A DNA stretch of 64,000 nucleotides, from contig JAZDNB010000035.1 of the NCBI GenBank assembly GCA_043800345.1, positions 10,430 to 74,429 on the forward strand, written 5' to 3'. Below are positions 45,118 through 45,309 of this stretch, in pieces. The notes beneath the pieces were generated by a model. That model ran no database searches. It was not told the origin of the DNA and worked only from the letters and a program-made list of their open reading frames with translations. This DNA is from Candidatus Omnitrophota bacterium (GTDB lineage Bacteria; Omnitrophota; Gorgyraeia; VGKN01). Positions within the stretch are counted from its first letter, which is position 1. Every line of letters starts with the position of its first letter. The translations under genes and the position numbers were made by a program.

Positions 45118-45138
45118 GTAAACACCTCCTCGTTTGAT

Positions 45139-45278
45139 TATGAAGCTCCACGGCTTAACAGCCGTGGTTTCTGACTTTTCGGTCTCGTGCCATATGGCAC
45201 AGGCTCACGGAGCGGAATCCCGCCAGAAAACCATTTATCTATGCCTTTACAGACATGGTTTTCTGGGTACGGGATAAA
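45139..45278 (-). repeat. Structured modular repeat element, copy 2 (140 nt, intergenic 5' leader position)
   Basis: Aligns with 14529-14705 (see that entry). It carries a 14-nt palindrome GTGCCATATGGCAC where copy 1 has a TCCGCTC/GAGCGGA hairpin. It lacks the 51-nt nested module of copy 1. Confidence 0.85.
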
Positions 45279-45281
45279 AAA

Positions 45282-45309
45282 ATTTTAACATATTAATCTT
45301 TTTTGTCAA
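45282..45309 (-). promoter_or_regulatory. Candidate sigma70-type promoter firing into repeat copy 2 / zinc-ribbon gene / rsfS
   Basis: The minus strand reads TTGACA (45309-45304), a 16-nt spacer, then TAAAAT (45287-45282). The predicted TSS coincides with the repeat boundary (~45275-45278). Confidence 0.5.

Follow-up and report, generated by a model that had tools for sequence, protein, structure and literature searches.

A probable mobile palindromic repeat in the 5′ leader of the DUF5679–rsfS(–argS) unit of an Omnitrophota bacterium

In the cyanobacterial SDR/Nezha systems, small repeats are nested into composite elements. Composite modular elements are likewise formed by the pneumococcal BOX, RUP and SPRITE repeats, which insert into one another (PMC10969869). 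Correia/NEMIS elements of Neisseria often lie just upstream of genes, including between promoter and operon in the case of mtrCDE, and are co-transcribed with their neighbors, the long duplex of the transcript being a substrate of RNase III (PMC10969869). Rickettsia palindromic elements (RPE), as summarized in PMC10969869 from Ogata et al., are non-coding palindromic repeats that occur both in intergenic DNA and in frame inside unrelated genes, where they add a peptide segment to the product.

The locus considered here lies within a 64-kb stretch of DNA from an Omnitrophota bacterium, referred to below as the window (all 64,000 nucleotides that were analyzed). A preliminary description of this DNA had noted two copies of a structured element and judged the second, situated behind a strong promoter, to be more suggestive of a functional RNA module than of repeat scatter. 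We arrive at a different reading, in which the element is not a conserved regulatory RNA and is probably a mobile passenger in the 5′ UTR. With a probability of about 0.8, the 141-nt element belongs, as one copy, to a family of small dispersed repeats that are non-coding and non-autonomous; the family is a new one of a known kind, that of small non-autonomous palindromic dispersed repeats. Coordinates of the features are collected in Table 1.

Table 1. Positions of the repeat copies, their parts and the neighboring host signals (window numbering unless another locus is named)
Feature	Position	Strand	Evidence or remark
Copy 1	14705-14528	-	178 nt by cmsearch; 177 nt = 59 codons in frame
Sigma-70-type promoter of DUF5679-rsfS(-argS) unit	45309-45282	-	scan, 11/12 matches; extended -10 TG
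-35 box TTGACA	45309-45304	-	followed by 16-nt spacer
-10 hexamer TAAAAT	45287-45282	-	preceded by TG-n (extended -10)
Copy 2 of dispersed palindromic repeat, 141 nt	45278-45138	-	cmsearch 110.8 bits; BLAST and alignment to copy 1
P1, long bulged hairpin	45275-45217	-	base ATCCCG/CGGGAT, 3-nt bulge, 12-bp stem, further 6-bp tip
P1 base ATCCCG/CGGGAT	45275-45270 / 45222-45217	-	closes the 12-bp stem
Perfect 12-bp stem CCAGAAAACCAT...ATGGTTTTCTGG	45266-45223	-	0 matches expected in shuffles
GTGCCATATGGCAC palindrome/hairpin	45200-45187	-	insertion private to copy 2
Core block GACCGAAAAGTCAGAAACC with 3-bp GAC/GTC mini-hairpin	45184-45166	-	alignments; used as search probe
P3 hairpin CCACGGCT-GTTA-AGCCGTGG	45167-45148	-	arms 45167-45160 / 45155-45148
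3′ tail AGCTTCATAA	45147-45138	-	conserved right end (right junctions, eight copies)
SD AGGAGG	45130-45125	-	host-owned; kept in orthologues
Start ATG of DUF5679 gene	45117-45115	-	host-owned; kept in orthologues
Zinc-ribbon DUF5679 gene, 48 aa	44971-45117	-	PF18930 in orthologues
Nested GC-rich palindromic modules	L001 1405-1436; L002 5200-5294, 5303-5332; L008 2282-2311, 2386-2429		

The DUF5679–rsfS leader and its orthologues

The TTGACA-16-TAAAAT promoter named in the preliminary description was recovered by scanning, and the same signal, TTGACA-N16-TGTTA(A/C)AAT, occupies the orthologous position in three relatives that keep the gene order CNNM (or MgtE)–DUF5679–RsfS–ArgRS–Mfd: L013/L014 (GCA_964506845.1), L016/L017 (GCA_964579905.1) and L021 (GCA_040960315.1). 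These nearest relatives of the source organism are 66–70% identical to it in ArgRS, that is, fairly distant, the comparison including no very close genome. The promoter block CTTGACAAA...TATGTTA[A/C]AATTT is invariant in the four genomes (window, L013, L016 and L021), and the window and all three relatives have the same SD/start region AGGAGGTG..ATGGATGC. This conservation shows the promoter of the DUF5679 unit to be genuine and to belong to the host locus and not to the repeat, from whose start it is separated by five T residues.

Across the block of promoter, SD and start codon, the window departs from its relatives only in having the 141-nt element, which separates the −10 box from the SD. 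From the upstream gene to the DUF5679 start, the relatives measure 44 (L013/L014), 112 (L016/L017) and 75 nt (L021) versus 226 nt in the window; from the −10 box to the SD they measure ∼20–45 nt, and the element is absent from each (0/3). The leader of L013 reads cTTGACAaaagtacctgatatgtTAAAATttcacattaatagacactttAGGAGGtgtgataATGGATGCATATTGCGTAAAGTG and that of L021 reads cTTGACAaagctaattagtatgtTACAATttaaccattccaacttttAGGAGGtgtaataATGGATGC, with an equivalent leader in L016, where 39 nt lie between the −10 box and the SD. Because the same promoter, SD and start occur without the element in three relatives, copy 2 is best regarded as a lineage-specific insertion into an ancestrally short leader. 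A single gain would also be more parsimonious than three separate precise losses, as far as such fairly distant relatives allow the comparison.

The transcription start predicted from this promoter, ∼7 nt 3′ of the −10 end (45282), is A45275, the first base of the P1 helix, as the earlier placement of the start at the element boundary had anticipated. Lying downstream of the conserved promoter, between the −10 box and the SD, copy 2 would therefore be co-transcribed as the 5′ UTR of DUF5679–rsfS(–argS) from about +1 and would account for almost the whole of that UTR, again in line with what had been proposed for the zinc-ribbon gene, rsfS and possibly argS. The structural features noted previously (a 12-bp stem closed by CCCG/CGGG, the GTGCCATATGGCAC hairpin and an 8-bp hairpin near the SD) are all present. 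Folding of the RNA is predicted to yield −60.6 kcal/mol, at z = −6.9 relative to dinucleotide-shuffled sequences; the bulged P1 duplex spans ∼24 bp. GTGCCATATGGCAC is absent from all other copies; it takes the place of the 3′ half of the family hairpin P2 (TTCCGCTC-CAT-GAGCGGAA), which is consequently disrupted in copy 2.

In the predicted fold of the full leader, the element folds autonomously and the SD is unpaired in the centroid structure; neither the SD nor the ATG of the DUF5679 gene is sequestered by the element in the predicted folds, and the SD begins 17 nt beyond the end of P3. The bases that follow P1, P2 and P3 are AUUCC, GACC and AGCUUC, respectively. Since no stem has a U-tract behind it, read-through would be preserved; a scan of 45138–45278 detected no terminator-like site on either strand, and the GC-rich hairpin plus U-tract that characterizes an intrinsic terminator or attenuator does not occur. 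Scanning the whole window against Rfam at gathering thresholds gave 0 matches, which agrees with the earlier failure to recognize any known riboswitch class. Missing from orthologous leaders, and in its other copies not tied to functionally related genes or to sense-oriented 5′ UTRs, the element qualifies neither as a riboswitch nor as a conserved leader.

Several other features of the region may be recorded here. The reverse strand of the repeat starts with ATG and is open (MKLHGLTAVVSDFSVFRSWSGIP...), so that gene prediction can be misled into false ORFs, one of 47 aa in the window (45134–45277, plus strand) and one of 169 aa in L001 (1378–1887, plus strand). The window as a whole (1–64000) has an extreme gene-strand bias, with 56 of 56 non-overlapping ORFs of at least 100 aa on the minus strand. 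The spacer between rsfS and argS measures 483 nt in L021 (1106–1588) versus 115 nt in the window, and contains several further small palindromes. It also holds an AT-rich block, 'aaat(c/t)caaatatcaaaaat...', which is found again 5′ of argS in L015 (130–340) and could represent either a further repeat family or a leader conserved at argS.

Copies and anatomy of the repeat family

The family so far comprises the two window copies, the first of which is present on the same strand as the second, as had been claimed, and at least six copies in the Omnitrophota MAG DeMMO3_15. The exact 19-mer GACCGAAAAGTCAGAAACC, used as a probe across 185,579 species-representative genomes, gave nine matches, namely six copies, all in DeMMO3_15, and three chance matches in coding DNA. 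Six of the eight copies were thus ascertained by this very 19-mer, so that its invariance among the DeMMO3_15 copies is a product of ascertainment. Scans of metagenomes and viruses with the same probe gave no matches, or only chance matches in unrelated GC-rich coding DNA; among annotated plasmids and phages, no named relative matched; in protein space, the two open frames of the element, used to seek ORFs called across other copies, returned 0 matches; and a covariance model derived from all eight copies detected no further diverged ones in the ∼176 kb examined. The family is extremely rare in public data. Repeat cores are 94–100% identical among the copies of the two genomes, whereas the closest available protein orthologues of the hosts are only ∼60–70% identical; the window and DeMMO3_15 loci compared have no orthologues in common.

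Copies range from 105 to 230 nt. The minimal form, represented by L009, L005 and L007 (105–109 nt), opens with P1 (TTTATCCCACACCCAG-tip-GGG(C/T)GGGAT), which is followed by P2 (TTCCGCTC-CAT-GAGCGGAA), the mini-hairpin GAC-CGAAAA-GTC, P3 (CCACGGCT-GTTA-AGCCGTGG) and the tail AGCTTCATAA. The P1 tip is of type a (AAAACCATG...ATGGTTTTC) in both window copies and L008, and of type b in L005, L007 and L009, in which TCCGCC-TTT-GGCGGA forms the unrelated short hairpin GTCCGCC-TTT-GGCGGAC; the distal part of P1 is thus a swappable module. Extra palindromes nest at recurring points (the P1 tip, the 5′ stem of P3 and the P3 loop) in L001, L002, L008 and window copy 1, which carries an additional 51-nt insert in its P3 loop. 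The nested inserts are common to pairs of copies in mosaic fashion, one being found in L008 and L001, another in L008 and L002, and a third in L001 and L002; the latter two copies are themselves 5′-truncated or rearranged. In L002, one palindromic insert lies inside another, Russian-doll style. As free-standing copies, the nested modules were not found in the ∼176 kb examined.

In the repeat, P1 begins 3 nt inside the left end and P3 stops 10 nt short of the right end. Terminal inverted repeats are lacking: TATCCCRCACCCAG at the left and TATGAAGCTCCACGG, the right end in reverse complement, agree only in TAT. P1 and P3, the left and right hairpins, show no sequence relationship. Four of the six complete copies have TA at both junctions, where it is inseparable from the element's own ends. 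No unambiguous target-site duplication was found, the empty sites being too diverged to define a target. The 5′ flanks are merely T-rich (TTT in 5/6 copies), with no definable conserved tetra- or pentanucleotide beyond that. The DNA examined showed neither a TnpA nor a RAYT gene, the 64-kb window has no apparent ORF of transposase type, and further matches to the repeat ends, as expected of a cognate autonomous IS, were lacking in the ∼176 kb examined.

The genes beside the copies are unrelated to one another: DUF5679/RsfS, a pseudopilin, BamA, L5/S14, SIS/cytidylyltransferase, a Peptidase_S74 protein and a glycosyltransferase. L007 is situated between rplE (L5) and rpsN (S14) in a ribosomal protein operon. 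L009 is antisense to the genes on either side of it, one SIS/GmhA-like and the other encoding a cytidylyltransferase; the SIS gene takes its final codon and its stop from the repeat.

When complete copies were tested for in-frame insertion, two of the eight family copies, L005 and copy 1, proved to be intragenic, free of stops and in the same reading frame, FIPHP..GGIPLHERKTEKSETTAV..KPWSFI. Frame +0 lacks an internal stop in 6/6 complete copies, with copy 2 and L008 ending at the terminal TAA of the element. BamA is an essential outer-membrane assembly protein; in DeMMO3_15, L005 constitutes 35 codons in frame after codon 4 of its gene, which encodes five POTRA domains and Omp85. The start codon of BamA shares the sequence ATGA with the stop codon of the gene before it, and the stretch ahead of the hydrophobic signal core contains no other in-frame start. 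In the signal peptide of BamA, the repeat (L005, 198–320) separates the n-region (MKWR) from the hydrophobic core (VILFSSFALI).

Copy 1 had been placed immediately 5′ of a start, as copy 2 indeed is; it is instead contained, in frame, in the part of a pseudopilin gene that encodes the leader peptide, the gene having its start ATG at 14798 and the prepilin motif KG/LSFIEVL. The pseudopilin orthologues L019 and L018 begin at a conserved (A/G)TG-A(A/G)G-ATT-TTA that overlaps the 3′ end of the preceding gene, and the window gene keeps this start at 14798 (ATGAGGATTTTA), the ATG overlapping the end of an upstream pilin-like gene. The conserved ATG/GTG excludes a gene start at the non-canonical ATA at the end of the element. 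Neither orthologue has the element (0/2), their leaders being 15 aa (MKILLPTYLNINKRG/ITIMEIL) and 39 aa, respectively. In the window, 59 in-frame codons are inserted before SHRLNRKG/LSFIEVL, and the resulting leader of ∼105 aa contains, besides the repeat, a stretch of ∼22 aa absent from L019. The 39-aa leader of L018 (539–660) also holds the in-frame GC-rich palindromes CCCCGCAAATGCGGGG and AAGGCGGGCTCGCCTT; the leader-coding region of the pseudopilin therefore seems to have taken up small palindromic inserts repeatedly in this clade.

Origin of the element and rival explanations

The presence/absence pattern and the copy number together suggest that the repeat is mobile. Its unit, ∼105 nt in the minimal form, is a fixed scaffold of three unrelated hairpins (P1, P2 with the mini-hairpin, and P3) and a conserved 3′ tail, in which the hairpin tips accept or exchange further small palindromes. 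Spread would occur at the DNA level through an enzyme acting in trans. A single-strand mechanism of the Y1/IS200-IS605/RAYT-like type would fit better than DDE cut-and-paste because the hairpins are subterminal, terminal inverted repeats are absent and the junctions are T-rich or TA. A TA target-duplication or IS630-like model was set aside for want of terminal inverted repeats. Simple TA excision at copy 1 was likewise considered; it restores no start codon, the real start lying 93 nt upstream.

Copies would survive where they do little harm, in short UTRs, inter-cistronic gaps and gene ends, and the stop-free frame would also allow them to persist in regions that encode N-terminal leaders or signal peptides. 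Copy 2 would have entered a locus whose promoter was already present and conserved, in the gap between the −10 box and the SD. The insertion is probably tolerated because it causes no termination of transcription and no block to translation. Any effect on expression is likely to be incidental. In E. coli, a 5′-terminal helix slows 5′-end-dependent mRNA decay, and the most likely effect of copy 2 would be of this sort, with a stem-loop from +1 slowing decay from the 5′ end. The ∼24-bp P1 duplex could also be a substrate of RNase III, as in Correia/NEMIS transcripts.

The most serious competitor of the mobile-passenger reading is that an element of mobile origin has been kept here, and perhaps generally in the sense orientation, as an exapted cis-acting RNA module that serves as a 5′ stabilizer stem-loop, as an RNase III/E site uncoupling cistrons or as a platform for protein or sRNA binding. 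The coincidence of the predicted start with the first base of P1, which would give the transcript a 5′-terminal helix, is in keeping with such a role, as are the preserved read-through, the near-identity of the core in two genomes and the documented RNase-mediated effects of Correia/NEMIS and ERIC repeats on host transcripts (PMC10969869). Seven of the eight copies are sense to their neighboring genes (one-sided binomial p ∼0.035, for eight copies only and with a gene-strand ratio of 56:0 in the window). This bias could reflect RNA-level selection; it could equally arise from strand-specific insertion combined with gene-strand bias, or from selection against one orientation. That both window copies run in the direction of transcription, which the preliminary description had emphasized, is correct and carries little information where every one of the 56 ORFs is on the minus strand. 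Folding is no more discriminating: either strand shows G-U and A-C mismatches, copy 2 folds at −59.0 kcal/mol in antisense versus −60.6 kcal/mol in sense, and both strands fold equally well, leaving no strand signal. In the insert-trimmed alignment 94.5% of cells pair, and 12 of the 14 double-change cells stem from the single swap of tip type a for type b; the two other pairs are compensated, each with uncompensated intermediates in other copies, in a covariation test to which eight near-identical copies give little power. With the swap discounted, little compensatory change is left. Against the functional-module claim stand the three orthologous leaders that have the same promoter and no element, the disruption of P2 in copy 2, the unrelated genes that adjoin the copies and the antisense (L009), intragenic and truncated copies, which speak against a general RNA role. 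We consider exaptation unlikely on this balance. Doubtful to a greater degree is a broader version, in which the repeat would be an RNA-level, sense-oriented module (a portable 5′ or inter-cistronic stabilizer or processing signal) or a retro-mobile, SINE-like RNA recognized by a reverse transcriptase or nuclease; if true, it would explain both the 7:1 sense bias and the conservation of the core between genomes.

Two further explanations are more improbable still. One holds that the element is an undescribed multi-copy structured RNA gene or ribozyme, for instance a self-cleaving or retro-mobile one, with variable hairpins around a conserved core. A conserved core with hairpin tips of variable length is the pattern of many ribozymes, the folding z-scores are strong, and on inspection of the sequence the strings AUGAG...CGAAA...GUC loosely recall hammerhead motifs. 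Inspection likewise discards a hammerhead, the core C3-U4-G5 (CUG) being absent and AUGA not being conserved in copy 2. Even at E<10, an Rfam search with both window copies returned only noise far below gathering scores and no ribozyme family. Moreover, the 'variable tips' are nested palindromic inserts, mosaic among copies; self-cleavage would destroy the copies that are translated in frame in BamA and the pseudopilin; and the family's extreme rarity in public data also weighs against this very unlikely reading. The last and least probable explanation makes the element ancestral to the leader and lost in the relatives, leaving a lineage-specific, vertically inherited leader. The mere 66–70% ArgRS identity of those relatives leaves it some room, but it would require at least two to three independent precise deletions, each leaving a functional short UTR, and it leaves unexplained why copies almost identical in sequence occupy seven further, unrelated loci in the two genomes.

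Recognition of the family has practical consequences. In annotation, it prevents the entry of a mobile repeat as a leader of riboswitch type, and it explains odd gene starts in these MAGs, namely the 105-aa leader of the pseudopilin and the 35-aa insert in the BamA signal peptide. Omnitrophota, a phylum represented chiefly by MAGs, would gain an RPE-like repeat family tolerant of insertion in frame. The copies carried in frame by cleavable leaders and the modular, nested architecture are the more interesting by-products of the analysis, and cleavable N-terminal leaders may act as safe landing sites for such repeats. The locus also offers a natural test case in which an identical promoter of a housekeeping operon occurs with and without a 5′-terminal structured insert.

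Comparison with known repeat systems

Like MITEs, the Omnitrophota repeat is small, has no transposase ORF, is present in dispersed copies and differs in presence or absence at orthologous sites; the absence of terminal inverted repeats places it outside the strict definition. In this absence, and in having hairpins near both ends, it resembles PATEs, which derive from IS200/IS605, and the REP/BIME-RAYT systems. As in these systems, its orientation may be strand-biased, and it is compatible with Y1 transposition of single-stranded DNA in trans. Unlike those of PATEs, its end hairpins are dissimilar, and it has neither a conserved 5′ tetra- or pentanucleotide nor a defined target; REPs, for their part, are much shorter single palindromes.

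The nested palindromes of L001, L002, L008 and window copy 1 recall nested SDRs. The sequence families and hosts differ from those of SDR, BOX, RUP and SPRITE, however, and the inserted modules are not free-standing in the ∼176 kb examined. With respect to position, copy 2 is equivalent to a Correia/NEMIS element between promoter and operon, and P1 could behave as the duplex of those transcripts does. Correia elements possess 26-bp terminal inverted repeats, a TA duplication and internal promoters or IHF sites, whereas the Omnitrophota repeat was tested for terminal inverted repeats and has none, and the promoter here is that of the host.

The likeness to RPE is one of functional analogy only, with no sequence relationship expected, as the host phylum is Omnitrophota. 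In contrast to RPE, the intragenic copies occupy cleavable N-terminal leader or signal regions and not mature domains, and the scaffold consists of three different hairpins with swappable tips. In common with RPE, the family is a palindromic dispersed repeat of ∼100–150 bp, two of whose eight copies are inserted in frame within genes, adding 35 and 59 codons. The best reading is thus of an RPE- or MITE-like repeat that dispenses with terminal inverted repeats.
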